From sequence record NC_054649.1: DNA of 47,611 nt; one strand, given 5' to 3'. The position numbers and the translations under genes were made by a program. Position 1 is the stretch's first letter, and each line of letters opens with the position of its first letter. Positions 1 through 47,611 of this stretch are shown piece by piece. The stretch is from Escherichia phage vB_EcoS_swi2. The notes beneath the pieces were generated by a model. It searched no databases. It saw only the letters and a list, made by a program, of their open reading frames with translations, and was not told the DNA's origin.

Positions 1-84
1 CGACAACAACAGCCACCAAAACAACAAAGCACACAAGGAGGTAATGAGACTCCGATGGACTTTGATGATTCAATACCATTTTGA
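1..84 (+). CDS. ssb: Single-stranded DNA-binding protein, C-terminal part (continuation of the ORF that begins at 47210)
   Basis: Frame 1 from base 1 reads RQQQPPKQQSTQGGNETPMDFDDSIPF then stop at 82-84; the acidic DDSIPF tail matches the E. coli SSB C-terminal tip; frame is continuous with 47210..47611. Confidence 0.7.
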   Translation, partial: RQQQPPKQQSTQGGNETPMDFDDSIPF

Positions 85-2312: not shown

Positions 2313-4734
2313 TATAATAAATGCTCCTTTGTGAATTTGATGTATATTGTATCACGATGACTGAATGGCATATTCGTACATGTCGTCGCTGTATTCGCTC
2401 ATGGTCAGAGTTGTTGTGCCGTCACTTCCCGGATTCTTCTGGCTGACAACCCACAACGTGGTATCAAGCTCTTTCTCAGTGCTCAGCACGTAACGAGATT
2501 CTGATTGCACGTTTGTACCATCCCAGATGTTTAACTTGAAATCTGATGGCAGATTGCAGGTGAATGTATGCAATCCAGTTACTGTGGCTGGCAATCTGTC
2601 TGATACGCTGCCGTCAGAACTGGTAATCACAACATAAAGATTATCATCAGCCGTTAGCTGCTCGCTGGTTGTGAGTGCGTTCCCGTTACGCGCTTCAATA
2701 ACGCCAGTCTGTTGCACGTCATCGTACATATCTACAACCTGAATCATGTCACCTACGTTAACCCATTCACCATCTGCCAGCGCTTTAATTTCCATGCTGC
2801 GACGAGAGTAAATCAGCCTGCGACATTCAAGGATTGCCCGGTCAACAGCCTGATATCGATTGCGAACATAAAGCATGTCGAATTTCTTCGCTTTAGTTGG
2901 CTCGCCTTCTACAATTCCGCTGTTGGTAATTCTATAGTAAACGTTGGCCTGCTTATTCGTTGTTGGGTCTCGATATTCGACGTTAACGCCATCATAAGTG
3001 CCGGGAAGGCTGATATCGTAACTCAGTTTGTAGCCATCGCTCTGCGTGTTTCTGGTATTGAATACAGTAGCTGGATATTCGCGTTTTTCATCACGCGAGA
3101 AACTCATCACTCCATCATCCCAGAATGCGGTGACACGCGCCGCATCGCAGATGGTCTGCAGGCGTTCACCGATGCTCTTATCCTCATCGTCAAACGTATA
3201 ATCGAAATACCCAAGTCGCTCATCAGGCAGGCTATCGGCAATTTCATACAGCTTCACGATGTCGATCGTGTTTTCTGGATTGCCAGCGGTAATCAGCCAG
3301 TTATGCAGAACAGCATCAGCAAAGCTACGAGATGGTGCAAGTGTATAGCGCACCGTGCCAGTATCCCGGTTGTATCCGATGGTATGACGCATGATTAGCG
3401 CATTATATTTCCTGTCACGGCTTCCTGTTGCGTTCTCCGTTGCGCGCACGATAACCTTAACCACCGTATCATCTGGATACGAAACGTTTCTGCGCGTGAC
3501 GATTGAATGCACTTCATCAAGCTGAATGATTGATTCTTGGGTGCTGTTGTTTGTCCTTGTAAACTGAACTGCGTATCTGGCGCTACCATATGATGGCGTT
3601 ATTTTTCTTGTGTAATAGTAGGTATCTGCTCCTCCAGCCACAAAGGTATATGTGGTTGATTGGTATGAACCTGCAATCTGCACGTTATCATCATCCACCG
3701 CCCACCACTCAGCTTTGACAATAGCACCCTGATCTTCACCAAATTGAGCAACAAAGTGGAACCACAGCTGATCACCTTCTATTGGTGAGAAATACGGACC
3801 TGAAACAAGAGGTTGGTTATCAGTAAGGTTGAAGTAAGTGTTATTGATGGTTGCGCCACTCAAGGATGATATCGGTGCGCCTGAGTAGTTGATGTTATTA
3901 ATTATAAATGTATACCAGTAATCAACGGGTGGAATATTTCCATCATCCGTTTCTGATGCTGACACAAGACTACCTGACAAGGTGACGTTTTCAGTGACCG
4001 ACGTGCCGCCGCCAAGCGCGTAAGTGATGTTTAGTTTGAAAACCACATCATGAGGCATAACCAAATCAACAAAGTAATCGAAAGCGGAATTTTTTGGTAT
4101 TTTTACAGCTATTTGTCCGCCAGCAAAGTCAGTGCTGGTCACCGATGTTGTTGTGGCTGACTCAATGACAACAGAGTTAGTGTCGTTTGGCCCATACAGT
4201 TCCTGACCGTCAACGTCATCAAATGCGTAAGGTTCAAGAACAACAGGGATAACTTCTCCAGGCTGATAAATGGTGTAACTAGCGCCAGCCAGAGAGCCGA
4301 GGTTTGATTCCGAATAACGCACAGAAGATACATCATACTTACCGAGGCCAAAGTTCATGAACTCGGTGACGTATTTAATATTATTGATGTATTCGAATAA
4401 TGATTCCTGAAGTAAGTCAGGAAACGCACGAATCTGTCCGAAGTTATCAGGGCGCGCCTCGCCGTTACGAGCAATGTTAGTCTGTGCCTTCAGGCTGGTA
4501 TTTGGTGATGTTTTTGAGCTGGTATCCGTTTTGGGTGTGGATACCTTCGGCGTAAGGAAGGAGAAAATCTTCGTTACTGGTTTCAGTATCGCACCGATCA
4601 GGTCGCCGATTGCGCCGGATGGCTGACAATAAACGTTGACAACGTCGCCATCGCGCAGGCAGAAGGAAAGCTCATCATCTTCACCAAGCACTCTGCCATT
4701 TACCGCAATTGAAATGCTGGCAGGAAGATTTGAT

Positions 4735-6189
<1,455 letters not shown>

Positions 6190-6277
6190 TCATAAGTGCA
6201 GCTAGTCCGGCCAGATGAAAAGCGATTGGTTATCGCCTGCTGCATCACTTCAAACCACCTTTAACCGAGGATTCAAT

Positions 6278-7156
6278 ATGAGTAAGTCAACCGCTGAAGA
6301 ATTTATTATAAAAGCCAGAGGTATTCATGGTGATAAATATCTTTATGATGCTGTTTCTTATATAAAAAGTTCGATAAAGGTAAAGATAACATGCCGTAAG
6401 CATGGGCTATTTGAGCAGACTCCAAACTCTCATTTGAATGGAGCTGGATGCCCTTCTTGCTCTGGAAATAAGAAGAAAACAACGCGTGAATTTGTGGCTG
6501 ATGCGATTGCAAAGCATGGTGACTCTTATGATTATTCTAAAGTTGAATACAGAGGCGGTCACAAGAAAGTAAAAATAATATGCAAAGTACATAATTTTGA
6601 GTTTTCTCAGGAGGCCAACAGCCACCTTAATGGGTGTGGTTGCCCTGTTTGCGCAAGGGAGAAAATTACAGCATCTGTAACTAAGGGGTTCAATAAGTTC
6701 AAGAAAGATGCCATTATAATTCATGGGAATAAGTACCATTATGATTGCTTGTCATACATTAATGTGACAACAAAAATGAGAATAAAATGCCCAGAGCATG
6801 GGTGGTTTACAAAGACGCCAGATAAGCATCTCCAAGGGCAAGGTTGCCCTCATTGCTCCAAGGGAGGTTTCAAGCTGAAAGAAAAGGCCTTTGTTTACTT
6901 CTTGTTCTCAGGAAACGAAATTAAAGTTGGGATCACTAACAATCTTAGGCGTAGAGTTTGTCAGTTAAAGAAAAACACACCATTTGATTTTCACGTCATA
7001 TCAAAAATAAAGACAATAGGTAGTGATGCCCTTGCTATTGAAAAGTACTATCATAAGAAATACGAAAGTGCAGGACTGACAGGGTTTGATGGCGCAACGG
7101 AGTGGCTTAAATATTCACCTGAATTAATGGATGAGATAATGAACAAAGCCCCGTAA
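6278..7156 (+). CDS. T5orf172 / GIY-YIG-like domain protein with three tandem Cys/His zinc-finger repeats (putative homing endonuclease)
   Basis: Three about 45 aa repeats each with C-x-x-HG ... HL-x-G-x-GCP-x-C; C-terminal VYFLFSGNEIKVGITNNLRRR motif typical of T5orf172; GAGGA RBS before ATG 6278; AT-rich; opposite strand to flanking tail genes. Confidence 0.6.
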   Translation: MSKSTAEEFIIKARGIHGDKYLYDAVSYIKSSIKVKITCRKHGLFEQTPNSHLNGAGCPSCSGNKKKTTREFVADAIAKHGDSYDYSKVEYRGGHKKVKIICKVHNFEFSQEANSHLNGCGCPVCAREKITASVTKGFNKFKKDAIIIHGNKYHYDCLSYINVTTKMRIKCPEHGWFTKTPDKHLQGQGCPHCSKGGFKLKEKAFVYFLFSGNEIKVGITNNLRRRVCQLKKNTPFDFHVISKIKTIGSDALAIEKYYHKKYESAGLTGFDGATEWLKYSPELMDEIMNKAP

Positions 7157-15784: not shown

Positions 15785-16093
15785 ATGAAAGATGAATTTA
15801 AAGGCACAAAAGGTCAGTGGACCAATCATTCTTTATTTACTGGTGAAGCGCGTACATCAATTTGGTCTGGTGATATTTATGTAGCAGAAGTAATGAGTGT
15901 TAGGGAGTCAGAATCGGTGAAGAAGGCTAACTCAAATATTATCGCTGCAGCGCCAGAATTACTCGAAGCACTTCGCCAGCTTCGCGATTATGTTGAGGAT
16001 GTTTGCGCAGTATCGTCTGATGATTGCCATGAGGAACACCCATTAAATCTGGCAAACAAAGCAATCAAGAAAGCATTAGGAAAGAAGCAATGA
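15785..16093 (+). CDS. Hypothetical protein, paralog of 28232..28525
   Basis: Shares EFKGT-G-W N-terminus and IAA-P-LL-AL-QL central motif with 28232..28525; GAGGTGA RBS. Confidence 0.5.
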   Translation: MKDEFKGTKGQWTNHSLFTGEARTSIWSGDIYVAEVMSVRESESVKKANSNIIAAAPELLEALRQLRDYVEDVCAVSSDDCHEEHPLNLANKAIKKALGKKQ

Positions 16094-16899
16094 AAACACT
16101 AAGCAAAATCTATTCAGACAAAGAAACGCGCAACGGTATCGCAGTCAACAAAACCTACCTCGTGCCAGTGGAGCAAATCTATCTGGAGCCGGGATACAAC
16201 ATCCGTGAAGCAGATGAGCAGCACGTTGAATATTTCGCACAGTGCTGGGAATCAGGTCAGCCACTGCCAGCATTAACAGTTATTCCTGACGAGAAGGGGA
16301 TACGCATTCTTGATGGTCAGCATCGCTATCTCGGCGCATTGCGTGCCATTGAGCGTGGCGCACCAATCGCTCGTATTGAGTGCAAGGATTTCACTGGCGA
16401 TGAGGCGGACAAAATTGCCTTCATGGTGTCATCCAGTCAGGGTAAGCAGCTTGACCCGTTTGAACGCGCAAAGGCTTACACACGACTGAAAGGCTTTGGC
16501 TGGACTAACGAGGAAATCGCCAAGAAGGTAGGTCGCTCAGTATCTGACGTGCAAATGCACCTGTCGCTGGGTGATGTTCCGGCCGAAGTAAAAGCACGCA
16601 TCAGTGCAGGACAAATCAGCTATGCAAACGCCGTAGCGGTAACGCGTGAGCATGGCGACGATGCGGTTAAAGTCATCGACGAGGCAGTAGAAGAAGCCAA
16701 AGCACAAGGTAAGGACAAGGTCACAGCGAAGGTGCTGAAGTCGAAAAAGATTAAGCCAGTAGACCGCCTGATTGAGCTGTTGAAGCAAGCAGATCACGTG
16801 ATTCTCCCTGCTGGTCATTTTGTGGCAGAGGATGAGGAATTTATCCAGATTCCTGTTGCTGATATTCACGAGGTCATGGCAATTCTGGAGAAGATGTGA
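16090..16899 (+). CDS. ParB-like N-terminal domain protein with HTH
   Basis: ILDGQHRYLGA motif (ParB/sulfiredoxin-type) and HTH-like WTNEEIAKKVGRSVSDV; ATGA overlap with upstream gene. Confidence 0.65.
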   Translation: MKTLSKIYSDKETRNGIAVNKTYLVPVEQIYLEPGYNIREADEQHVEYFAQCWESGQPLPALTVIPDEKGIRILDGQHRYLGALRAIERGAPIARIECKDFTGDEADKIAFMVSSSQGKQLDPFERAKAYTRLKGFGWTNEEIAKKVGRSVSDVQMHLSLGDVPAEVKARISAGQISYANAVAVTREHGDDAVKVIDEAVEEAKAQGKDKVTAKVLKSKKIKPVDRLIELLKQADHVILPAGHFVAEDEEFIQIPVADIHEVMAILEKM

Positions 16900-17353: not shown

Positions 17354-17516
17354 ACAATTCATCGAAAAACAACTTCGCGCCAAGCTGCCTGACATCGACC
17401 AGATGGCAATTGATGCGGCGATTCAGTACTACAAGCGCAATCAGAGCGCTAAGAAGGGCGGCATTTTTGAAGAATGCCTGAAGGTTGCAAAACAGCACAT
17501 GATTAAGGTGAAGTGA
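17343..17516 (+). CDS. Small hypothetical protein
   Basis: 57 aa ORF not in track; stop overlaps start of next gene. Confidence 0.3.
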   Translation: MNAEQFIEKQLRAKLPDIDQMAIDAAIQYYKRNQSAKKGGIFEECLKVAKQHMIKVK

Positions 17517-18052
17517 TGAAACTAAAAATCAGCAAATTATTACTTGAATCAGCATTAATCTTTCAGGCGCGCAATGATGTGCGATATTACCTGAATGGAA
17601 TCTGCTTTATGCCTGATGGTCGCATTGCCTCAACTGACGGTCATCGTGCGTTTATTGGTGGAAACCATGATAATAATCTGACAGAAAATGTGATTATCAA
17701 GATTGGCAAGTCACCAACAAAGCGTTATGAGCACGCCATCATTGATACAAAGTCGAAAATTGCAACGTATCATAATGAAGCTGGCGTGATGGTTGGCGCT
17801 GGTATCTGCGAAGAGATTGATGGTCGATTCCCTGACATTGACCGCGTGATACCAAAAGAAACAAAAGCAGCAGATGAAATTGGCTTCAATGCTGGCTATC
17901 TGGTTGATATCGAGAAAGCTGCGAAGCTGTTTAATCCTAAATTCTGTGGCGTCAAATTTGAACTGAAGGGAAATACAAATGCCGCAGTTTGCTGCCTTAG
18001 CGCGCCATCTGGCGAGACTGCGAAGATTGTTGTTATGCCGATGCGCCTGTAG
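17516..18052 (+). CDS. Truncated DNA polymerase III beta sliding clamp (DnaN) homolog
   Basis: 178 aa; NDVRYYLNGICF...TDGHRAF, DGRFPDIDRVIPK and C-terminal IVVMPMRL match E. coli DnaN domain II, the II-III linker and the extreme C-terminus; domain I is absent. Confidence 0.75.
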   Translation: MKLKISKLLLESALIFQARNDVRYYLNGICFMPDGRIASTDGHRAFIGGNHDNNLTENVIIKIGKSPTKRYEHAIIDTKSKIATYHNEAGVMVGAGICEEIDGRFPDIDRVIPKETKAADEIGFNAGYLVDIEKAAKLFNPKFCGVKFELKGNTNAAVCCLSAPSGETAKIVVMPMRL

Positions 18053-37900: not shown

Positions 37901-38080
37901 TTATTTCGCCTCGCAAGAGTTAGTGATTGACTTAATGCGACGGCGATACAGCTGCATTATGTGCTCGTTATGCCAGTTGCTCATTCTGTTACTCCTTATA
38001 ACCTGATTTGGAAACTGCTACTGCGATAATGATGAGCGCCACGATAACCAGACTGGCGATAATTTCAAATGATGCGCCTG

Positions 38081-38227
38081 TCATTTGCTCAACCCATACG
38101 CTGAGATTAAAGCCTGCATTGCTGCGTTCCAGAATGCTTCAGCAGGAATGCTGTTGTTTGTGCGCTCAACTGCAATGCGTGCCATAGCCTGCGCATCTTC
38201 AAATTCTTCACGGTCTTTGATTTTCAT
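38081..38227 (-). CDS. Small hypothetical protein, first gene of leftward early operon
   Basis: 48 aa ORF with GAGGGTGA RBS directly downstream of minus-strand promoter; not in track. Confidence 0.4.
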   Translation of the reverse strand: MKIKDREEFEDAQAMARIAVERTNNSIPAEAFWNAAMQALISAYGLSK

Positions 38228-38257
38228 CTCTTCACCCTCGTTTGTTCCGATGAGTTC

Positions 38258-38286
38258 AATCTACATCAACGATGATTCTACGTCAA
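38258..38286 (-). promoter_or_regulatory. Sigma70-type promoter on minus strand, TTGACG-N17-TAGATT
   Basis: Minus strand reads TTGACGTAGAATCATCGTTGATGTAGATT; drives leftward early genes. Confidence 0.6.
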
Positions 38287-38292
38287 CAGCAA

Positions 38293-38675
38293 GTTACCCA
38301 AATAACGCAAAATCCGGTAACTCGGAACATAAAAACCGGTAACTGTTACAAATCAATTACTTATGTTGTTTTATACCATTTTTGCCATTAAAAAGTTACC
38401 GGAGTTACCGGTCGTCCGGTAACTTGAAACCCGCGAACAGCAAGGCTCTCAGGCGAGTTACCGGATTTACCGGGTAACTCCTTACATATATAAAAGGGTT
38501 GAATTTCTTATTATATATATGATTTATAAGCATTTTATTCAATTTTGATACAAATTCTCATTTTTGAAATTTTTATAGACTCATATGCAAAAAATCCGGT
38601 AACTCCGGTAACTCTATATCTATCAGTAACTTGCATCGGTAACTGATCGGTAAAAACCCGGTAACTCCGGTAACT
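38293..38675. repeat. Iteron array: at least 12 copies of CCGGTAACT / AGTTACCGG in both orientations flanking an AT-rich core (putative origin or operator region)
   Basis: Copies at 38314, 38336, 38395, 38403, 38416, 38456, 38471, 38596, 38605, 38637, 38658, 38667 plus variants; AT-rich about 100 bp at 38485-38590; no ORF. Confidence 0.7.
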
Positions 38676-38715
38676 ACTGTAAAGATGTGTAAGTTAGAAC
38701 GTTATCTTGCTGTCG

Positions 38716-38744
38716 TTGACGTGTACATAATATTCATGTATATT
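38716..38744 (+). promoter_or_regulatory. Sigma70-type promoter TTGACG-N17-TATATT for rightward replication operon
   Basis: -35 38716-38721, -10 38739-38744, AAGGAGGA RBS and ATG at 38770. Confidence 0.55.
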
Positions 38745-38769
38745 TTTTACATCACAAAAGGAGGACTGA

Positions 38770-39048
38770 ATGTACCCAGATGGCACTAAATTAATGTTTG
38801 CATACGAGCTGTTATCTTCAATGAAATCTGGAGAACTGGTTGGTATTCACTTCGAGAATGAATACTCAAGCGAAATAATCAAAGGAGAAAAGGAAAATTG
38901 CTGTTGTGTAGTGATCGATGAAAAGTACCGCATGACGCACAACATGTTCAGGTCTTACTGCACCAGAATAGCCAATGAACAAGGTATGGTCATCAAAACA
39001 AAAACCAGTGAAAGCAAAAAATTCATGTATATCTGGAGAGTCCTCTGA
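38770..39048 (+). CDS. Hypothetical protein, first gene of rightward operon
   Basis: 92 aa ORF with strong RBS. Confidence 0.45.
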   Translation: MYPDGTKLMFAYELLSSMKSGELVGIHFENEYSSEIIKGEKENCCCVVIDEKYRMTHNMFRSYCTRIANEQGMVIKTKTSESKKFMYIWRVL

Positions 39049-40676
39049 TGACTGATTCAAAGCAAATCATTGAACTAAAGGAATCTCTTAAGCCAACAGG
39101 TAAGCCTGATTCTGGAAATCCACTTGATGAAATTGACGTGCCAGAATTCCGTGAAGGATACAAAATTCCTCCTGGCTCTCTTGGTGAATTCATGTGCGAG
39201 ATAGAGAATCATTTTGAAAATCGCGAAGAAGGAGAGGTATACCGATTGCCGGGTGCTATCGCGCTTGCTCAGGTGATGGCTGGCAGATACATCATTGGCC
39301 CAAGCGCAAAAAACAAGTGTGCGACGGGGACATTTATTGTTGGTCGATCTGGCGCAGGTAAGGGTGCTCCATCTGATTTTGTTAAGGCTTACGCAGAGAA
39401 TCTTGGAATAACTCCTCGCGTATCAAAAAGCACCGTAACATCATTGCGACAAATCAAAGAACGACTAATTGAGGCTGATGGTTTCTTGCTTTATATCGCA
39501 GATGATTGTCCTGAACACCTTCAGGCTTGGTCAGATACGCGCTCACCGCTTGGTGAAACAGCTTCATGGTTCAGGACGTCGATTAGTGGTGACTGGTTCC
39601 CTGAGTCTCCTGTCGTTACATTGTTTCAGGAGAAGCTGGCTAGTGCTCAAAACCCGAAGTTAATACTCTCTGCTGCGCAGGCTCAGGGGTGGATGATACC
39701 TCGCATAGGTGAATCTGATGGCGCTATAGATTATCGCAGACTTGCGAAAATGAACCATGATATTGGAAGAAGATTAAATCACGCCATGCAATGTTATGAC
39801 CTGTGCATTAACGAGAAGGGAATACAGAACGTAAGGTTCATTCCTTTCATAACTGTTACCCCAGAACAGGGGATTGCAACAGTAAGGAGATGGGAAAAGG
39901 ATGGCGGCATGGGCAGATCTCTTTTCATTAAAGGCCATGAACACATGCCAGAACTTAAGAATACTCCTGACATGGAAATCAATAAAACAATAATAAACGA
40001 ATGGAAACCAAGAATTCCAGGTGGATTCTTTAATGTGGAATATGCAAATGATGGCGTTTCGAAATACTATGAGATGTTGCGCAGGCGCATAGATAAGTCA
40101 AGCAACATTCCCGGTGTAATTGGTAGCGTCGGCCCTCGCTCTGCTCAGATGGTTATTGAGCTTGCGACTCTTTGCGCTTTTGCTGACTTATCATCGCGCA
40201 ATGGCATGACTCCGCAGATAAGGGAATGCCATATTGAATGGGCGTATGCAACAGTAATGAACAGCATGTACGATCTGCGTGATTATCTGGAGGGAGAAGC
40301 AGAGTTTGACGGACTTGAAAACACTGAGTGGGACAACATTGTTATGAAGGTTAAAAAATGCATTGAATCAAAGGCTTTCGCTGAAAAGCCTTATATTTCA
40401 GTGGTAAAAAACAAACTTTGTCGCGACAGAATCAGTAAGATAATTTCCGCCGCCGATTCAAACTCAATTCAGGTTACGCCGGATAAATTTACTTACGAGG
40501 TCATCATTGCCATCTCTGAAAACAGGCATTCACCAATAGAGCTTGACCCAGAAAATCCATCCAATATCCGGCTTTCTGGTGGCGGTTCATGGTCTGGGTT
40601 GCGGATGAACTCATCAGTCAGGAATATCCTGTCATCAGCAATGAAGCGAATGAGATTTATGAGGAACTTGAAATGA
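39048..40676 (+). CDS. P-loop NTPase, putative replication initiator or helicase-type protein
   Basis: 542 aa; Walker A-like GRSGAGKG; located next to putative origin and primase. Confidence 0.45.
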   Translation: MTDSKQIIELKESLKPTGKPDSGNPLDEIDVPEFREGYKIPPGSLGEFMCEIENHFENREEGEVYRLPGAIALAQVMAGRYIIGPSAKNKCATGTFIVGRSGAGKGAPSDFVKAYAENLGITPRVSKSTVTSLRQIKERLIEADGFLLYIADDCPEHLQAWSDTRSPLGETASWFRTSISGDWFPESPVVTLFQEKLASAQNPKLILSAAQAQGWMIPRIGESDGAIDYRRLAKMNHDIGRRLNHAMQCYDLCINEKGIQNVRFIPFITVTPEQGIATVRRWEKDGGMGRSLFIKGHEHMPELKNTPDMEINKTIINEWKPRIPGGFFNVEYANDGVSKYYEMLRRRIDKSSNIPGVIGSVGPRSAQMVIELATLCAFADLSSRNGMTPQIRECHIEWAYATVMNSMYDLRDYLEGEAEFDGLENTEWDNIVMKVKKCIESKAFAEKPYISVVKNKLCRDRISKIISAADSNSIQVTPDKFTYEVIIAISENRHSPIELDPENPSNIRLSGGGSWSGLRMNSSVRNILSSAMKRMRFMRNLK

Positions 40677-40864
40677 GAACAATATCAGGCGAACTTTGCC
40701 GCTCAGAAGGTTTATGGCATTTCAGGCCGTATGGTTATTCGACGTGGTTTTTCTGGAGTGGGATTAACAAAGTATGGATTCGCTCTAATTACCACGTGCT
40801 TAATGATTACTGGCACAGATTTTGTGTTGGTCACGTTGATATTTCAAAGATGATGATTAAGTGA
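40673..40864 (+). CDS. Small hypothetical protein
   Basis: ATGA overlap with upstream stop. Confidence 0.3.
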   Translation: MRTISGELCRSEGLWHFRPYGYSTWFFWSGINKVWIRSNYHVLNDYWHRFCVGHVDISKMMIK

Positions 40865-40954
40865 GTGTAAGGAAATAGATATGGAATATCACACAGGTAA
40901 GTCGCTGCGAAATGTAGACTTCTGGACTGAAGCGCCAGAGTTCAAGGAATAACA

Positions 40955-40982
40955 AAAACCCTCCGATTGGAGGGTTTTTGTT
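40955..40982. terminator. Bidirectional terminator hairpin
   Basis: aaaccctcc gatt ggagggttt followed by TTTGTTAT. Confidence 0.6.
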
Positions 40983-41934
40983 ATCTGATGACTGACATTT
41001 TCTCTATCAACTCGCCAGCGTCATAAATCTTTCTCCTGATTCTCTTTGCCATCCTGATTGTGTCAGCATCATCAGGTAGCATCACCGGAAGGCCTGCATT
41101 CTCTGCGGCGCACAGCTCGTCGAATTTATAATTAACTATGCAGCGTAACCGTGCTTTCGTCTCATCGCTAACAGAACGCACCACTTCCCACATGTTTTCC
41201 GGTGACCAGCAGCACCAGACATGGGCGCCAGTGAAGTAATGGCATTTCCACGCATCGGCATAATCAGATGCCAGGTAAATGAACTTTCCGTTGTCTTCTC
41301 CGATTGGACTTATCGCTCCGCGCGTGAGCTTTCCGTTGATAGCTGAGTCTTTGTTGTATCCAGCACGGAAAAACGTTCTGAATAAATCACCATCCATGCC
41401 AATGAATGCCACGTTGCACGGCTTCATTGTGTCAGCGCGCATCATCTCAACCGCAATAAGCTCTCCAGATTTACCTCTGGTGACATTAACGTCGCAACCA
41501 ATACCATTTATCAATGTCCACTCATTCATCGCGACACGCGTCGTTTTGGCCATGATTGCTGCGACTTCCTGCTCGGTGATGAAGTTATCGTTGTAATTTA
41601 TCTTCGGCAACTCCTTCCTAATTGCCTCCAGCTTTTCACGCGGGTGCATATTCAGGAATCCACCAAGTGCCTCCAGTGCTTCGGGAAAGCTCATGCCTGA
41701 AAGTTTCATCAGCCAGTTCATGCCGCTACCGGAACCGCACTGATTGCATATTGCGCCGCCGTCGCCTTTTGTTTCGAAGTTGTCATCGAAGCGATACCTG
41801 TCTTTTCCTGAGCATGACGGGCATGGCTGATGCTTGCCATTGAAAACTCTGCTATCCACATTGACGATAGACATGATGGCGGCTTGCCAGTTGCCAAGCA
41901 TTTTTGGCTCAATGTCTTTCCAGTAGTATCTCAT
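40981..41934 (-). CDS. Putative DNA primase with zinc-binding motif
   Basis: CPSCSG...CNQCGSG zinc-ribbon near N-terminus; start at MRYYW with AGGAAG RBS. Confidence 0.5.
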   Translation of the reverse strand: MRYYWKDIEPKMLGNWQAAIMSIVNVDSRVFNGKHQPCPSCSGKDRYRFDDNFETKGDGGAICNQCGSGSGMNWLMKLSGMSFPEALEALGGFLNMHPREKLEAIRKELPKINYNDNFITEQEVAAIMAKTTRVAMNEWTLINGIGCDVNVTRGKSGELIAVEMMRADTMKPCNVAFIGMDGDLFRTFFRAGYNKDSAINGKLTRGAISPIGEDNGKFIYLASDYADAWKCHYFTGAHVWCCWSPENMWEVVRSVSDETKARLRCIVNYKFDELCAAENAGLPVMLPDDADTIRMAKRIRRKIYDAGELIEKMSVIR

Positions 41935-41946
41935 AAAATCTTCCTG

Positions 41947-41975
41947 TTGACTGTGATGTAGAATCATTGTAATTT
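41947..41975 (+). promoter_or_regulatory. Sigma70-type promoter TTGACT-N17-TAATTT
   Basis: Contains conserved GTGATGTAGAATC spacer motif. Confidence 0.45.
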
Positions 41976-41981
41976 ACTCAC

Positions 41982-42026
41982 ATGAAACAATCAATCGTTA
42001 CTTGCAATGAAACAATTAATCGTTAC
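41982..42026 (+). repeat. Tandem 20-bp direct repeat ATGAAACAAT(C/T)AATCGTTAC x2
   Basis: Copies at 41982-42001 and 42007-42026, 19/20 identical, 5 nt apart, immediately downstream of promoter. Confidence 0.7.
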
Positions 42027-42041
42027 AATAGAGGATAAGAA

Positions 42042-42194
42042 ATGGCTATCACCGTTAAGAAGTGCGAGGTTTGCGGAAATGAGTTTATCGGAACTGCAAA
42101 AGCAAAATGTTGCTCAGGAAAGTGCAGATTGCGCAAGCACAGACAGAAGAAAAACCCAATTCATAACTCAAAAACAGATAATGGAATATCTTGA
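42042..42194 (+). CDS. Small zinc-ribbon protein
   Basis: 50 aa ORF with C-x2-C ... CC-x3-C; GAGGA RBS; overlaps HNH start. Confidence 0.35.
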   Translation: MAITVKKCEVCGNEFIGTAKAKCCSGKCRLRKHRQKKNPIHNSKTDNGIS

Positions 42195-42654
42195 ATATAA
42201 CCCTGAGACTGGTGTTTTTACAGCTGCAAAAACACATGGAACACTCTGGCGTAAAGGCAAGATTGTTGGGCATAAGAATAAGGCAGGGTACATCACCATC
42301 ACGCTACTGGGAAAACTAAGGAAAGCTCACAGGCTGGCATGGATTTATGTTTATGGAGAAGATATAGATGGGTATGAAATAGACCATATAAATGGTGACA
42401 AATCAGACAATAGAATTTGCAACCTTAGGATTTCTAGTCACCAACAAAACATGTTCAACATGAAAAAGAAATCAACAAATAAATCTGGTGTAAAAGGTGT
42501 GCATTTCGATAAAGGGTGCAACAAATGGAGAGCGCAGACATCAATAAACAAGAAGAGGGTTCATCTTGGTTTGTTTGACACCATAGAATCAGCAGAAAAG
42601 GCGATTCGTGAATTCATGGTTGCTAACCATAAAGAGTTTATTAATTTAGGGTGA
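42181..42654 (+). CDS. HNH homing endonuclease with AP2 domain (paralog of 12995..13486)
   Basis: AHRLAW...EIDHINGDKSDNRICNLR and SGVKGVHF...NKWRAQ motifs; track ORF starts upstream at 42007 without RBS, so internal ATG preferred. Confidence 0.75.
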   Translation: MEYLEYNPETGVFTAAKTHGTLWRKGKIVGHKNKAGYITITLLGKLRKAHRLAWIYVYGEDIDGYEIDHINGDKSDNRICNLRISSHQQNMFNMKKKSTNKSGVKGVHFDKGCNKWRAQTSINKKRVHLGLFDTIESAEKAIREFMVANHKEFINLG

Positions 42655-42657
42655 GTT

Positions 42658-44580
42658 ATGCATAAGATAGACAAAATGATTTCAGAGATTGACATTAACT
42701 TGCTGAAATCCTGCTTGGATACTGGTGATATCGAGCCAAGACCATATCAGTGGTTGATATATAAGTTAACTGGTGATGTGATCCGCCATTATGTTGGTCC
42801 AAGCTATGTAACAGCAAGCGTCGGTAGCGGAAAGTCACTGATGATTGCCATGATAGCAAAGCGTTTTCAGGAAATGGGATATTCAGGGATGATTTTATCA
42901 AGACAGGGCGAAATAGTGGAGCAGGATGCGGAAGAGCTATGGTCGTTTGGTGTTAGAAACTCGCTATTCAGTGCTTCGTTAGGTAGGAAAAGTTCTACGT
43001 ACCCAATAATCTGTGGTTCTGAGGGTACTGTTGTAAATGCTTTGTTTGATAAAAAGGATGGGTCAGGGAATGTTATTGCAAAAGGTGTGCTCTCTGACTT
43101 TTGCCCAAGATTCCTGCTGATCGATGAAAATCATATGGTTAATGACATTGATGTTGTTAATAATGGTGATACGCAGTATGCAGTGATAATTAATGAGCTA
43201 ATGAAAAGGTGCAAAGATAAGCACGGCCATGAGTTGAGAATAATAGGTTATACAGGCTCACCGTTTCGCGGAACTACATCAATAAAAGGCGCTTTCTGGA
43301 AGAAAGAGATTATCAACATAGACACCAAGTACATGGTTGAAAACGGTTTTCTTGTACCAACAATTTTTGGTCTTCATGATGTTGATAGTCTGCATTATGA
43401 CCTTTCAGATTTTCATGGTTCAGATGTTGATGGTACTCAGGACTTTACCGCCGAGCAGCTCAAGCAGATGCAGAAAGAAATTCTTGAGCAAGGTACGTTG
43501 ACGCAGAAAATCATGCTCAAGGTTATGGAATTGACTAAAAACAGGAACGGAGTGCTAATTACATGTGCTGGTAAAAAGCATTGCCAGGAGGCGGCAAAGT
43601 ATTTGCCTGAAGGAAGTTATTCAATAGTTACAGAAGATATGGGGTCAAAAGCCAGAAGGAAGGCTCTAAAAGATGCATACACCGGGCGCAAAAAATTCAC
43701 ATTCCAGATAGCTGCCCTTACCACTGGCGTAAATATACCGTTATGGGATACGAGCTGCATATTGCGAAAAATAATGTCACTCACTCTTCTTGTTCAGTTG
43801 CTTGGTCGCGGGATGCGCCTGCTGAAGAAAGAGCAAATTGATGCCGGGTATCATAAAGAGGACCATCTGGTTCTTGATTTCTCTGGCACGATGTTTGAGC
43901 TTGGTCAGCTATATGAAGACCCAATCCTTGAAGAGGCTGAAGCGCAACGTTCAAAACGCAGTGGTGAACAAGTTCCGTGCCCGAAATGCGGAACAATGAA
44001 CAGCCCATATGCGCGCCGCTGCATTGGCAAAGATGCATTGTCGCCAGATGGTAGATGCGAAGAGTTTTTCAGTTATATCCGTTGCGGTTTCGACAAACAT
44101 GGCATCCGTATTTTTGATGATGGATGCGGCACTAAAAACGACCCCACTGCGCGTTATTGCCGACATTGCGATCATGTTTTGCGCGACCCGAATGCGGCAC
44201 TTAATGAGCGTGCGTATACAGATAATGAGTGGGCTGATGTTATGGATTTCAAAGTCCAGTTAACGAAGGATGGAGAAGGTATTTTGTATCGCTACTGGAT
44301 TAATCGTTGTGATGGCAAAGAAGGCTGGGCTAACGAAGTTTTCTACCCTTATGGCGGCGCAACTCACATGAAAAACATGTTTAAGGCAAAGGCGGTCTTT
44401 CCTCACCTTGATGATAAGTCAATGGCGGGGAAGATCCTGAAATGCCAGAACGCCAAGCAATTCATGATGTATGCGGGATTGATTAAAGCGCCAAAACGCA
44501 TCACGCATCGAATTAATGATAAAGGTCGCGACATAATACACCGCAAAGAATTTAAAGGGGAACAAAGTGAAGCAGCTTGA
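42658..44580 (+). CDS. Superfamily 2 helicase with C-terminal zinc ribbons
   Basis: Walker A VGSGKSLM, DExH-like LLIDENHM, later motifs, Cys-rich C-terminal region. Confidence 0.7.
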   Translation: MHKIDKMISEIDINLLKSCLDTGDIEPRPYQWLIYKLTGDVIRHYVGPSYVTASVGSGKSLMIAMIAKRFQEMGYSGMILSRQGEIVEQDAEELWSFGVRNSLFSASLGRKSSTYPIICGSEGTVVNALFDKKDGSGNVIAKGVLSDFCPRFLLIDENHMVNDIDVVNNGDTQYAVIINELMKRCKDKHGHELRIIGYTGSPFRGTTSIKGAFWKKEIINIDTKYMVENGFLVPTIFGLHDVDSLHYDLSDFHGSDVDGTQDFTAEQLKQMQKEILEQGTLTQKIMLKVMELTKNRNGVLITCAGKKHCQEAAKYLPEGSYSIVTEDMGSKARRKALKDAYTGRKKFTFQIAALTTGVNIPLWDTSCILRKIMSLTLLVQLLGRGMRLLKKEQIDAGYHKEDHLVLDFSGTMFELGQLYEDPILEEAEAQRSKRSGEQVPCPKCGTMNSPYARRCIGKDALSPDGRCEEFFSYIRCGFDKHGIRIFDDGCGTKNDPTARYCRHCDHVLRDPNAALNERAYTDNEWADVMDFKVQLTKDGEGILYRYWINRCDGKEGWANEVFYPYGGATHMKNMFKAKAVFPHLDDKSMAGKILKCQNAKQFMMYAGLIKAPKRITHRINDKGRDIIHRKEFKGEQSEAA

Positions 44581-44983
44581 TAGCGGTATATGGGTATTTG
44601 ATAGCGGTTATCGCGGAGAATGCCCAAAAGAGGAGATCGACCAGATGGGTTACGGTACATGGATGCAACACCGTTTCCCTGATGTTCTGTGGTTTCACGT
44701 CCCGAATGAAACAGGAACATCCAGCCGCGTCCAGTTCGTACTGAAGCGCCAGAAGATGGGTGTTAAGACTGGAATAGGCGACAATGTGATAATGACGCCT
44801 GGAGTGAAGCACACTTGCGGAATGATTGAGGCAAAGCGCCGCGATAAAAGCAAAAGCAGAGTGAGCAAGGAGCAATCTACTGTATTAACTGAGATGTGCA
44901 GGCTTGGTCATTATGCCGCAATAGCTTATGGGCTTGATGAATTAAAAAAAGCTACTTTATTCTATTTTGGACTTGATGAATGA
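44567..44983 (+). CDS. VRR-NUC domain nuclease
   Basis: GTG start with AAAGGGG RBS; PD-(D/E)XK-like core with conserved Glu and Lys; adjacent to SF2 helicase. Confidence 0.6.
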   Translation: MKQLDSGIWVFDSGYRGECPKEEIDQMGYGTWMQHRFPDVLWFHVPNETGTSSRVQFVLKRQKMGVKTGIGDNVIMTPGVKHTCGMIEAKRRDKSKSRVSKEQSTVLTEMCRLGHYAAIAYGLDELKKATLFYFGLDE

Positions 44984-45001
44984 CGTAGATTGATGTAGAT
45001 T
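44973..45001 (+). promoter_or_regulatory. Sigma70-type promoter TTGATG-N17-TAGATT
   Basis: Two tandem TGA(C/T)GTAGATT motifs; -10 TAGATT 44996-45001. Confidence 0.45.
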
Positions 45002-45032
45002 CAATTACACAATGACAAGTGAGGTGATGAAG

Positions 45033-45209
45033 ATGGATATTGAGATTCCGGATAGTTTTGATGCTGAGTGGCAATGCGAAATGCTACGCAATCTTCTTGT
45101 TAAGTTAAACGAACTTGATGATGGAGGTTATGTTGTCAGCGATGGTTATTCATTGCTTGATGATGCAATGAAAATTGTCGAAGCGTTACGTGAATACAGT
45201 GGTGATTAA
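45033..45209 (+). CDS. Small acidic hypothetical protein
   Basis: ATG 45033 with GAGGTG RBS at correct spacing. Confidence 0.35.
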   Translation: MDIEIPDSFDAEWQCEMLRNLLVKLNELDDGGYVVSDGYSLLDDAMKIVEALREYSGD

Positions 45210-46148
45210 ATGAAAGTCTATTTCAATAATGAATTAACTAATGAGCAATACCACGCTGACACAGAGCACATCAACGGTTCTGGCCTGTGGAACATTTATG
45301 ACCGCTGCCCCGCAGCTTGGCGCTACAAAGACGAAGAAGATGAGCAGTCAAAAGCTCTTATCTTCGGAACCGGAAGCCATACGGCTCTACTTGAACCTGA
45401 GCGCTTTGATGCGGAATATGCTCGCATGCCAACCAAAGAAGATTTTGGTGATGACCTGCTTGTTACTGTAAGCGATATGAACTCATGGGCGAAAGAGCGC
45501 GGCATTAAAGGACTATCAGGGAAGTCGAAAGCTGAGGTGATCAAAATAATTCGTGCAACTGGCGAACCAGTGAAGATTTACGACGAAGAGCGTCTTATTG
45601 CTGAAATTAACGCCAATGGTCGCACTCTGTTAGAAGGTGATGATTATGACGTCATTCAGCAAATGCGTGCTGTAATTCACGCAAACAGCTATTACAGCAG
45701 CCTTCTTGCTGGTTCTTATGCTGAAGTATCAATCCTCGGTGAGCTTTACGGGGAAAAGGCAAAGGTTCGGTTTGACTGCCTGACAAAAGGTGGTGACATA
45801 ATTGACTACAAGACAGCGGTAAGCGCCAAGCCTGATGAGTTTTTCCGTCATGCTGCGCGACTTGGCTACTTTATGAAGATGGCGATGCAGCACGACATGT
45901 TTGTTGCGGCATACGGTCATGCGCCGCGTTCTGTAAACCTTTTAGTTCAGGAAAAGAAAGCGCCGTTTATTCCTGCGTTAATTCTCTTGACTGAAGAGCA
46001 ATTACGCATCGGTCGCATTCAGTTGAATGGTGCAATGGAAATTTACAAGGCGTGTAAAAAAGCCAATTCATGGCCGGGTTATTCAATGGGTAATCCTGTT
46101 ATCGAAATGGAAACGCCTGAGTGGTTCAAGAAACAGTTTAATTTATAA
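45210..46148 (+). CDS. PD-(D/E)XK family exonuclease (recombination exonuclease)
   Basis: 312 aa; D ... IIDYK catalytic-like motif; gene context with AAA_24 ATPase and SSB. Confidence 0.6.
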   Translation: MKVYFNNELTNEQYHADTEHINGSGLWNIYDRCPAAWRYKDEEDEQSKALIFGTGSHTALLEPERFDAEYARMPTKEDFGDDLLVTVSDMNSWAKERGIKGLSGKSKAEVIKIIRATGEPVKIYDEERLIAEINANGRTLLEGDDYDVIQQMRAVIHANSYYSSLLAGSYAEVSILGELYGEKAKVRFDCLTKGGDIIDYKTAVSAKPDEFFRHAARLGYFMKMAMQHDMFVAAYGHAPRSVNLLVQEKKAPFIPALILLTEEQLRIGRIQLNGAMEIYKACKKANSWPGYSMGNPVIEMETPEWFKKQFNL

Positions 46149-46165
46149 TTAATGAGGTGATGCAA

Positions 46166-47206
46166 ATGGGTATTCTCAATATCAAACCAGCAGAGCGTTC
46201 AGGTTCTCGTGTGGTCATCGGTATTTCAGGTCAGTCTGGTAGTGGTAAAACATATAGTGCACTTAAGCTGGCGCGAGGTATGGTTGATTCACCAGAGGAA
46301 ATCGGATTCCTTGATACTGAAAACGGTCGCGGTCGCCTGTACTCAAACATCCTTGATGGTAAATTCCTGCACGCTGATATGTATGCTCCATTCAGCCCGG
46401 CTCGCTACCGTCAGGCCATTGAAGAGTTTCAGGTTGCTGGCGTTAAGGTTCTTGTTATTGATTCTGGCTCGCACGAATGGGAAGGGGAAGGAAGTTGCAC
46501 GGAGATTGCTGAAAAGCCTCTTCTTAACGGTAAAAAGATGGCTGACTGGAAGCGCGCCAAAGCTGAACACAAGAAGTTCATGAACGCCATGCTACAAAGC
46601 AATATGCATATCATTGTCTGTCTTCGCGCTCGCCAGAAAACTGACTTCGCAAACCCGAAGGAGCCTGTATCACTTGGGTTGCAGCCAGTGTGCGAGAAAG
46701 ATTTCATGTTCGAGATGACCGTGAGCATGATGATGCACGATGGAGGCAAAATTCAGGAGTTCACCAAACTACCAGAAGAGCTACGTCCAATCTTCTTTGA
46801 GTCTGGTCGTGAAAGTGTTCGTCATGGATACATTGGCGAGGCTCACGGTCGCGGACTCATCAAATGGGTGGACTCTGGCGTTAAAGTTGACGAAGAATTT
46901 GAGTCATGGCGCTCACGACTTCAGCTTTCCGCCGCAAAAGGCATGGAAGGCCTGAAGGAAGAAGCAAAATCAATACCTGATAACCTGAAAGATAAAATTC
47001 GAGCAATCTGGCCTTCTCTGGCTGCTTCGGCCGCAGAATATGATCGCATTGAGTCTTTCATCAATGATGAGCAATTATCCCCTGTGGTAATAACTCCTCA
47101 GGATAATTTCAACCCTGCAAAACTGGCCAAACAGCAACCACAGCAGCCAGAACAGCAGGAAGAAACAAAAACCGAACATAAACCAACTCCAATTGAAGGA
47201 TTTTAA
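46166..47206 (+). CDS. AAA_24-type RecA-fold ATPase (putative recombination protein)
   Basis: Walker A GQSGSGKT, FLDTENG motif, GAGGTGA RBS before ATG 46166. Confidence 0.6.
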   Translation: MGILNIKPAERSGSRVVIGISGQSGSGKTYSALKLARGMVDSPEEIGFLDTENGRGRLYSNILDGKFLHADMYAPFSPARYRQAIEEFQVAGVKVLVIDSGSHEWEGEGSCTEIAEKPLLNGKKMADWKRAKAEHKKFMNAMLQSNMHIIVCLRARQKTDFANPKEPVSLGLQPVCEKDFMFEMTVSMMMHDGGKIQEFTKLPEELRPIFFESGRESVRHGYIGEAHGRGLIKWVDSGVKVDEEFESWRSRLQLSAAKGMEGLKEEAKSIPDNLKDKIRAIWPSLAASAAEYDRIESFINDEQLSPVVITPQDNFNPAKLAKQQPQQPEQQEETKTEHKPTPIEGF

Positions 47207-47209
47207 TAA

Positions 47210-47611
47210 ATGGCTCGCGGCGTAAATAAAGTAATTATTGTTGGCACTCTCGGAAACGACCCTGAAGTTAAATATTCAGCATCAGGCTCTGCAATTGCCA
47301 ACCTTTCTGTTGCAACATCTGATCAGTGGAAAGACAAGCAGACAGGAGAAAAGAAAGAGCAGACTGAATGGCATCGCGTGGTCATCTTTGGAAAACTTGC
47401 AGAAGTTGCCGGAGAATATCTTCGCAAAGGTTCACAGGTTTACATCGAAGGCCAGCTTCGAACTCGCAAGTGGACTGACAGCAACGGTGTGGACAAATAC
47501 ACCACTGAGATTGTCATTCCACAGATGGGCGGAGTTATGCAGATGCTTGGAGGTAAACGTGATGATTCTGGTCAGCAACAACCACGCCAGCAGTCAGGGC
47601 AACAACCGCAA
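47210..47611 (+). CDS. ssb: Single-stranded DNA-binding protein, N-terminal part (ORF runs off window end and continues at 1..84)
   Basis: [22 protein letters not shown]...[39 protein letters not shown] closely matches E. coli SSB OB-fold; no stop before window end. Confidence 0.85.

Follow-up and report, generated by a model that had tools for sequence, protein, structure and literature searches.

The window analysed here, meaning the whole stretch of 47,611 nucleotides from Escherichia phage vB_EcoS_swi2 (sequence record NC_054649.1), contains a block of recombination genes that includes a RecA-fold ATPase of the AAA_24 type, a putative annealase, whose C-terminal tail is the main subject of this report. 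The ssb gene runs off the end of the window and resumes at positions 1–84, and Salmonella virus VSt472 (genus Skatevirus) has the two sides of this junction in one uninterrupted stretch. The window is accordingly the complete genome, circularly permuted, of a Skatevirus-like siphovirus of about 47.6 kb. The 4.95-kb region of the block has its best match in VSt472, with 92% identity over the full length, and is matched by 183 phage records altogether. An earlier note, made by a model from the sequence alone, had described positions 42658–47206 as a replication/recombination module, and the open reading frames (ORFs) that it gave for the helicase, the VRR-NUC nuclease, the exonuclease and the AAA_24 protein do lie on the plus strand at those coordinates. 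The features of the block are as follows.

42658–44580, plus strand: RadD-like superfamily 2 (SF2) ATPase/helicase of 640 amino acids (Helicase_C, phrog_16, PDB 6JDE, NCBIfam RadD).
44567–44983, plus strand: stand-alone VRR-NUC nuclease of 138 amino acids (family profile and AlphaFold fold match to 4QBL).
45012/45033–45209, plus strand: small acidic ORF of 65 amino acids, or 58 from the ATG at 45033 (phrog_7393, 'unknown function', E = 1e-25).
45210–46148, plus strand: RecE-type PD-DXK 5'-3' exonuclease of 312 amino acids (PF12684, E = 1e-24; phrog_412, 4e-91).
46166–47206, plus strand: AAA_24 RecA-fold ATPase of 346 amino acids (PF13479, E = 6e-12; phrog_1366, 8e-83).
47108–47203, plus strand: C-terminal tail of the putative annealase, amino acids 315–346, FNPAKLAKQQPQQPEQQEETKTEHKPTPIEGF (DNA alignment and blastn).
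47210–47611, plus strand: first 134 codons of SSB, the protein that binds single-stranded DNA, with the oligonucleotide-binding (OB) fold (PF00436, E = 7e-39; phrog_44, 3e-56).
1–84, plus strand: last 27 codons and stop of SSB (…MDFDDSIPF, stop); the joined translation is a 161-amino-acid SSB.

The genes of the block are co-oriented on the plus strand and are separated by gaps of about 50 nucleotides or less, or overlap; the gap before the small acidic ORF amounts to 29–50 nucleotides, depending on where that ORF starts, and only 4 nucleotides separate the stop codon of the AAA_24 gene from the start of ssb. All five domain assignments of the earlier note (SF2 helicase, VRR-NUC, PD-(D/E)XK exonuclease, AAA_24 and SSB) are supported by the profile searches that it had set as their test, with a family profile and a fold comparison being needed for VRR-NUC. 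Its list of five genes holds as far as it goes and leaves out the small acidic ORF, and its SSB gene is real, as the PF00436 match attests, and lies outside the end of the span to which it had been assigned.

The AAA_24 ORF can be extended to a GTG at 46157 (46157–47206, 349 amino acids), and the ATG at 46166 is taken as the likely true start because the homologues are 345–346 amino acids long. The protein matches PF13479 with 46.3 bits (cut-off 27) and the 'Sak4-like' family phrog_124 with E = 4e-9; phrog_1366, its own family, has no function assigned in PHROGs. A Walker A motif (GQSGSGKT, residues 22–29), a Walker B motif (VLVIDS, 95–100) and the sequence FLDTENG (48–54) are present. In the AlphaFold model (predicted local distance difference test score, pLDDT, of 73.5) a RecA-like core (residues ~1–210) is followed by a four-helix C-terminal domain (~225–300) and a disordered tail of 46 amino acids (301–346). 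The top PDB matches of this model are nearly all RecA, Rad51 and RAD51 paralogues (E ~1e-6), and its BFVD matches are described as 'RecA-like recombinase' or AAA-domain phage proteins; a PDB search with the single sequence gave noise only.

The same place in the sister phage seszw, also a Skatevirus, is occupied by an ERF-family protein of 222 amino acids (PF04404, E = 2e-26), encoded between the exonuclease gene and ssb. When the DNA of the window and that of seszw are aligned, the 3' end of the exonuclease gene, the ribosome-binding site and the ATG are identical, the annealase bodies are unrelated, and the last ~100 nucleotides are near-identical; the breakpoints of the exchange are the annealase start codon and window position 47108, which is the Phe codon of FNPAK. 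Since the AAA_24 protein stands in the exact slot of ERF in the sister phage and in T1-like phages, it is best read as a putative ATP-dependent single-strand annealing protein. A functional model is offered by Sak4 of phage HK620, which anneals single-stranded DNA with ATP and depends on the six C-terminal residues of the SSB that belongs to it (PMC5928155); Sak4 is also required for phage replication in Staphylococcus aureus (PMC5499656). The AAA_24 protein is called Sak4-like here, in superfamily and, putatively, in function. Membership in the Sak4 family itself was considered and rejected, on account of the missing direct similarity, the length of 346 amino acids and the helical C-terminal domain.

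Several results weigh against the annealase reading. The family alignment of the AAA_24 protein, compared with HK620 Sak4 by hhalign, gave a probability of 8% with Walker A alone aligned, and BLASTP of the two proteins gave E = 0.17 and nothing beyond Walker A; the link between them thus appears transitive, running through PF13479 and phrog_124. Sak4 has been defined as a short, 'core-only' protein of less than 290 amino acids without a C-terminal domain (PMC2896510), and the AAA_24 protein is longer and has such a domain. These results could be accommodated if the protein were an accessory ATPase, for instance one that serves the RadD-like motor or host RecA as mediator or loader, or one that loads a helicase, with annealing left to the host. 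The lack of an assigned function for phrog_1366, the absence of direct similarity to HK620 Sak4, the fact that the best structural matches include RAD51 paralogues, themselves mediators, and the extra helical domain not found in Sak4 would all agree with such a role. It is nevertheless distinctly improbable: what AAA_24 replaces, exactly from the start codon to the tail, is ERF, a bona fide annealase family, and such an exchange in otherwise collinear genomes of ~90% identity is hard to explain unless the two proteins do the same job. Moreover, HK620 Sak4 also matches PF13479 and phrog_124, and on both models it is outscored by the AAA_24 protein.

Both the AAA_24 protein of the window and the ERF protein of seszw end in FNPAKLAK…KPTPIEGF. 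As the near-identical last ~100 nucleotides follow unrelated bodies, a tail of 32 residues is common to two unrelated annealase folds; it consists of an FNPA motif, a low-complexity linker and a tip of the form [I/V]-[E/D]-x-Phe-COOH. In the literature searched no earlier description of this common tail was found, and it is the sole such feature of the module. A blastn search with window positions 47100–47212 returned 147 records, in which the carriers of the AAA domain match from query position 1 and the ERF carriers (Seszw_1, C1, KlebP_265, Vi II-E1, Akira and others) from query position 9, that is from 47108, at 85–95% identity; in one listed ERF carrier the match starts at query position 13.

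A terminal Phe is found in 91 of the 116 full-length members of the AAA_24 family, mostly as [I/V]-[E/D]-x-F, and an F-x-P motif in 89. These features occur in members whose loci carry a RecE-type exonuclease gene and a RadD-like gene; with the exception of one locus (L034), they are missing from members of similar divergence in other contexts. Among ERF proteins, all eight from module-bearing phages (Skatevirus, five lineages of Drexlerviridae, and phages of Plesiomonas and Pectobacterium) have (G)FNPA, or GIRPA in one case, followed by a linker and then by a Phe at or near the C-terminal end. The features are missing from ERF proteins of module-less phages (four of four) and from HK620 Sak4. 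In these small and phylogenetically non-independent samples the pattern is consistent, and the tail appears to track the module and not the annealase fold.

It is tentatively proposed, as a reading that may well prove right and to which we would not yet commit ourselves, that the tail is an autonomous, portable docking peptide coupling either core, the RecA-fold AAA_24 or the Rad52-like ERF, to a common partner within the module. The proposal draws on the analogy with the C-terminal domain of Redβ, which binds λ Exo and SSB at overlapping sites (PMC11611040). The most likely partner would be the RecE-type exonuclease. The tip of the tail resembles that of SSB (…D-I-P-F-COOH), and therefore a second candidate would be the putative pocket in which the RadD-like protein receives the SSB tip, SSB itself being a further one. 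Proteins that bind the β-clamp share the consensus QL[SD]LF, and FNPA was set aside as a β-clamp-binding motif because of its misfit to it. Autoinhibition by docking of the tail onto its own core was judged less likely, the tail being found on two unrelated cores. Remote AAA_24 relatives that form a branch of their own (L078–L080, L083, L085 and L086), and whose genes adjoin a divergent RecE-like exonuclease gene, have another conserved C-terminal motif, …[LV]DDLN.Q[IV]LG…, in place of the FNPA…F tail, which suggests that docking tails are lineage-specific. If the proposal is true, the exchange is a natural domain swap in which coupling to the partner is separable from the annealing fold in two-component recombinases. 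The tail bears on the question of whether annealases besides Redβ bind their exonuclease and SSB via a C-terminal element (PMC11611040), and, as a small transferable peptide, it might serve to match annealases with exonucleases or hosts.

The exonuclease encoded directly upstream of the annealase matches PF12684 (DUF3799, PDDEXK-like) with 88.1 bits (cut-off 26), and phrog_412, its PHROG family, is that of 'exonuclease VIII'. The NCBIfam exoVIII model is matched over positions 612–875 of 877 (E = 4e-11, 41.9 vs 1269 bits): the protein corresponds to the nuclease domain of RecE alone and is without the large N-terminal region of the full-length enzyme. It is 37% identical to the exonuclease whose gene adjoins ERF in phage Roth75, and the residues D189 and D199-Y-K201, conserved in the Roth75 protein, fit the PD-DXK form of the motif that is typical of RecE (PMC11611040). 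The SSB is of the bacterial type, combining the OB fold with an acidic C-terminal tip that ends in I-P-F. The small acidic ORF that precedes the exonuclease gene (isoelectric point 4.05; 15–16 acidic vs 4–5 basic residues) occupies a variable slot; only a subset of close relatives has the gene, and it is kept in the genome-reduced seszw clone described below. By analogy with Gam or gp5.9, a role as a DNA mimic or nuclease inhibitor is conceivable.

In the RadD-like protein a pair of RecA-like motor domains is combined with a zinc-ribbon region and with a C-terminal domain of the RadD type. Helicase_C is the Pfam family matched (E = 2.4e-7), with ResIII and zinc-ribbon matches below the cut-offs, and phrog_16, 'DNA helicase', is matched with 2e-77. 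The structure of RadD, PDB 6JDE, aligns with amino acids 28–515, the Cys clusters included (E = 1.3e-32), and the NCBIfam model heli_RadD_YejH (NF053632) with amino acids 28–626 over model positions 4–565 of 573 (E = 4e-55). The score against the latter is 187 bits, below the equivalog cut-off of 720 bits, and for this reason the protein is classified on its sequence as a homologue of RadD and not called an orthologue. Its motifs comprise GSGKS (56–60), DENH (156–159), TGSP (199–202), QLLGRGMR (380–387), CPKC (441) and CRHC (501). In Escherichia coli RadD the pocket for the C-terminal tip of SSB is framed by Arg21, Arg49 and Arg145 (PMC10238739), and RadD speeds RecA strand exchange and is stimulated via an SSB-tip pocket (PMC8887467, PMC10238739). 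The 6JDE alignment places R21 at R43 and R145 at R194 of the window protein, both conserved, and the equivalents of these two residues in T1-like homologues are Lys or Arg.

In a close relative (L013, IMGVR_UViG_3300015156_000005, positions 1391–4471) the RadD-like helicase is split exactly at the DExH motif by an insert with the appearance of an intein that includes a homing endonuclease segment of the LAGLIDADG type (…LAALAGDGC…); at its boundaries …MDE is followed by CLTGDALILTSDG, and NGFVAHN by CHQ…. The helicase of this relative lies in three pieces in two reading frames and may be degenerate or mis-assembled; the helicase of the window is without the insert.

The RadD-like protein could instead be the replication-initiation or fork helicase, acting with the divergently encoded primase in the way put forward for T1/TLS, with VRR-NUC trimming branches and recombination confined to the exonuclease, AAA_24 and SSB. 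Such a division of labour would agree with the divergent primase/helicase arrangement, conserved from Skatevirus to T1-like phages, with the re-annotation of phage TLS, in which the primase and the helicase 'might initiate replication' (PMC11447400), and with the absence of an annotated polymerase from VSt472, the closest relative. We consider it unlikely: the stop codon of the RadD-like gene overlaps the start of the junction-nuclease gene, which suggests coupling to a recombination enzyme, and a separate P-loop protein of 542 amino acids, labelled 'replicative DNA helicase' in seszw, is encoded next to the primase. That a full-length RadD homologue is found in a small operon together with a defined set of partners (SSB, annealase and junction nuclease) could be of wider use, since the cellular role of RadD is still debated and the phage operon would be a simpler system for RadD-type motors.

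The VRR-NUC gene starts with a GTG preceded by AGGGG, a Shine-Dalgarno-like sequence, and overlaps the end of the helicase gene by 14 nucleotides, suggesting translational coupling of the two. Its product escapes plain profile scans: against the Pfam family VRR_NUC (PF08774) the single sequence gave E = 0.14 and 12.6 bits (cut-off 23.8), a tie with Hjc, neither the Pfam nor the NCBIfam scan gave a significant match, and a single-sequence PDB search found nothing. The 42 homologues found are all close relatives without precomputed Pfam domains. A family profile of 20 sequences, however, matches PDB 4QBL, 'VRR-NUC' (psNUC), with E = 1.6e-4, and 10 of the 20 homologues match PF08774 (E ≤ 1), the best with 4.9e-5. 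The six top PDB matches of the AlphaFold model (pLDDT 79.3) are all chains of 4QBL (best E = 1e-5, template modelling scores 0.62–0.72), and 4QBN comes next (E = 0.08). The elements of the model (helices 21–36, 101–112 and 123–133; strands 42–44, 73–75, 85–90 and 116–121) form the restriction-endonuclease-like α-β-β-β-α-β-α fold, which resembles that of Holliday junction resolvases. E48, D72, E88, K90 and Q103 are invariant in the 20 homologues and match the signature described for psNUC, E-PD-ExK plus a family-specific Gln that hydrogen-bonds the catalytic Lys (PMC4103454), with Gly instead of Pro before D72. The stand-alone VRR-Nuc proteins psNUC, saNUC and stNUC are dimers that cut four-way junctions (PMC4103454), and by analogy the protein of the window is a putative dimeric four-way-junction resolvase.

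It was also weighed whether the main target of the nucleases of the block is host DNA, degraded to scavenge nucleotides or to shut off the host, and not phage recombination intermediates. Degradation of the host genome by T1-like phages is listed as an open question (PMC11447400), and there are VRR-Nuc domains that act as toxins by making double-strand breaks (PMC9635880). The stand-alone VRR-NUC matches dimeric resolvase-type structures, not toxin fusions, and an exonuclease gene directly upstream of annealase and SSB genes is the canonical recombinase arrangement; host attack as the main function is thus very improbable indeed.

The conservation of the block was followed by a scan of the neighbourhoods in 80 viral contigs encoding AAA_24 relatives. 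All close relatives share the order primase (minus strand), [HNH], RadD-like, VRR-NUC, [small ORF or HNH], exonuclease, AAA_24, SSB, and so do several relatives at 50–57% AAA_24 identity; in one of three more distant members examined (L050) AAA_24 is followed by a different PD-(D/E)XK nuclease, a fusion. The order exonuclease, ERF, SSB is found in seszw, Roth75, EC3a, phi2457T and Koroua; herni and e4/1c have it too, interrupted by a single additional gene. The pairing of helicase and VRR-NUC, which the earlier note had called recurring, does recur. The two genes are adjacent in the Skatevirus-like loci where both were detected, in the Webervirus-like Roth75, where they lie downstream of a divergent primase gene, and in Plesiomonas phage phiP4-7, where they are annotated as 'ATP-dependent helicase' and 'endonuclease'; in Loudonvirus DTL, with a divergent primase gene upstream, an HNH gene is inserted between them. 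The helicase of the window is 46% (Roth75) and 41% (DTL) identical to those of T1-like phages. A tblastn search with VRR-NUC gave matches in 787 phage records, among them those of T1-like Drexlerviridae, where the matching proteins are annotated as VRR-NUC or Holliday junction resolvase. By sequence and gene order, the block is the T1-type replication/recombination module. More than 100 Skatevirus-like genomes already have it annotated, as do, by homology, those of T1-like phages, and the block itself matters little.

A hint from experiment, the only one for this lineage, comes from clone 300L.2 of seszw (MZ375355.1), obtained after 300 transfers with CRISPR-driven reduction of the genome from 45.9 to 36.6 kb (PMC9825161). 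The clone retains eight genes, those of the homologue of the 542-amino-acid protein, the primase, the RadD-like protein, VRR-NUC, the small ORF, the exonuclease, ERF and SSB, and has lost flanking genes (tags 47, 48 and 53–59).

Taken together, the block is, with fair probability, an operon for the recombination and repair of double-strand ends, built as a two-component recombinase of exonuclease and annealase to which a cognate SSB, a motor for branch processing and a resolvase for junctions are added. The protein identities, the catalytic motifs, the operon-like packing, the gene order and the interchange of AAA_24 and ERF in one slot are established here; the steps of the pathway are inferred from the biochemistry of homologues and from gene context. 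The RecE-type exonuclease would resect the 5' strand at a double-strand end, for example at a fork that has broken or at an end of the terminally redundant genome, and the phage SSB would cover the resulting 3' overhang. The AAA_24 protein, brought to the single-stranded DNA by its own C-terminal tail and the SSB tip, would then anneal it in an ATP-dependent manner to a complementary strand, which may be that of the second redundant end, of a sister genome or of the lagging-strand gap. The RadD-like ATPase, probably activated by the C-terminal tip of SSB as in E. coli, would extend or unwind the three- and four-strand joints, and the VRR-NUC dimer would cut the remaining four-way junctions to leave linear, packageable concatemers. 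The outcome would be circularisation of the genome, concatemers for headful packaging, and rescue or repair of forks of the host replisome. The recombination-dependent replication strategy put forward by the earlier note is compatible with this pathway and stays an inference; the phage also encodes a primase and a protein of 542 amino acids that is labelled a replicative helicase in some records.

Some observations count against parts of the pathway. The third pocket arginine of RadD, R49, aligns with Q71, beside a gap, with K68 and R69 close by. RadD-like helicases are paired with ERF in T1-like phages, and the role of the RadD-like protein therefore cannot depend on a RecA-fold partner. An ORF at 17513–18052, labelled a 'RusA-like resolvase' in PHROGs alone, may make VRR-NUC redundant as a resolvase. 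The retention of genes in reduced seszw genomes is no proof that they are essential, and the roles in this lineage are predicted from homologues.

Further features lie at the borders of the block.

42007–42654, plus strand: HNH-AP2 homing endonuclease (PF13392 HNH_3, E = 3e-18; AP2, 6e-8; phrog_99, 8e-70).
40981–41967, minus strand: primase with zinc ribbon and primase core (PF08273, E = 4e-12; phrog_510, 1.5e-81).
95–114, both strands: bidirectional intrinsic terminator (8-bp stem with six GC pairs, T-runs on both strands).

The HNH-AP2 gene, the first of the block, is inserted mobile DNA and does not belong to the working parts of the pathway; some relatives carry it and in others it is missing. 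Further HNH genes lie between the VRR-NUC and exonuclease genes in three loci (L024, L032 and L067). Close relatives thus differ from one another in whether HNH(-AP2) homing endonuclease genes are present at several of the module's junctions, a turnover that marks the block as a hotspot for the insertion of mobile endonucleases. The terminator closes the operon and separates ssb from the convergent tailspike gene. A scan of 38000–47611 for σ70-like promoters gave 13 sites vs 19.7 in shuffled sequence, and no promoter is claimed. The primase gene, transcribed divergently from the recombination block, is a context gene; a single-sequence PDB search with its product gave noise only, and no DNA polymerase is annotated in VSt472.

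The protein of 542 amino acids (39048–40676, plus strand), whose gene adjoins that of the primase, has a P-loop-like motif, GRSGAGKG, and matches only the C-terminal part of 'DNA primase' PHROGs; its GenBank labels vary between 'DNA primase' and 'replicative DNA helicase', the latter in seszw. No Pfam or NCBIfam match was obtained, a single-sequence PDB search gave noise only, and a homologue search returned 11 close relatives, none with a Pfam domain. The true role of this protein bears on how replication starts. The ORF at 17513–18052 (plus strand, 179 amino acids) matches phrog_3007, 'RusA-like Holliday junction resolvase', with E = 9e-63 and no Pfam family; it also matches a 'processivity factor' PHROG weakly and adjoins a ParB-like gene (16090–16899). 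Should the resolvase label be correct, the number of junction nucleases in the phage would be two. In the region of the tail genes, on the strand opposite to its neighbours, lies a gene (6215–7156, plus strand) for a protein of 313 amino acids that has T5orf172/MUG113 domains alongside a treble-clef zinc finger (DUF4379); it is probably another mobile insert of a nuclease-like gene.

Of the known systems, that of the T1-like Drexlerviridae (TLS, Roth75, DTL, EC3a) is closest. The divergent primase/helicase arrangement has been described in T1-like phages, and the re-annotation of TLS lists the same components, no polymerase, and headful packaging from concatemers (PMC11447400). Shared with the window are the divergent primase, the RadD-like helicase (41–46% identity), VRR-NUC (~33–40%), the RecE-type exonuclease (37%) and an SSB whose tip is of the DDDIPF type; the gene order (exonuclease, annealase, SSB) is shared as well, and so is the FNPA…xF tail on the annealase. 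The annealase core there is ERF, with a Rad52-like fold, whereas here it is AAA_24, with a RecA fold, and in T1-like phages the exonuclease, ERF and SSB genes may lie on the strand opposite to those of the helicase and VRR-NUC. As in lambda Red (Exo-Beta) and RecET, a gene for a PD-(D/E)XK 5'-3' exonuclease adjoins the annealase gene, the C-terminal part of the annealase in those systems being believed to bind the exonuclease and SSB (PMC11611040), and the exonuclease of the window has the PD-DXK motif of RecE; unlike in those systems, the annealase is a RecA-fold ATPase and not a ring of the Redβ/RecT/Rad52 type, no Gam-like gene was identified, and a helicase and a putative resolvase are added. 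With Sak4 and SSB of HK620, and with Sak4 of lactococcal and staphylococcal phages, the system has in common a RecA-fold P-loop protein of the AAA_24 superfamily, its gene adjoining a phage ssb whose product has a hydrophobic-Phe tip; HK620 Sak4 has 226 amino acids compared with 346 here, where a helical domain and a conserved tail are extra, and HK620 uses RecBCD modified by Abc2, not its own RecE-type exonuclease (PMC5928155). The VRR-NUC protein resembles psNUC, saNUC and stNUC (4QBL, 4QBN, 4QBO) in fold, in the E-PD-ExK set and in the family-specific Gln, and its model has the β1-β2 insertion of psNUC; identity is ~20%, the single sequence falls below the Pfam threshold, and dimerisation and cleavage are predicted here only. 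With E. coli RadD (YejH), finally, the RadD-like protein shares the full-length architecture, the DExH motifs and two of the three arginines of the SSB pocket; it differs in its low identity, in being phage-encoded and coupled to a nuclease, and in that its partner recombinase may be ERF or AAA_24 instead of RecA.

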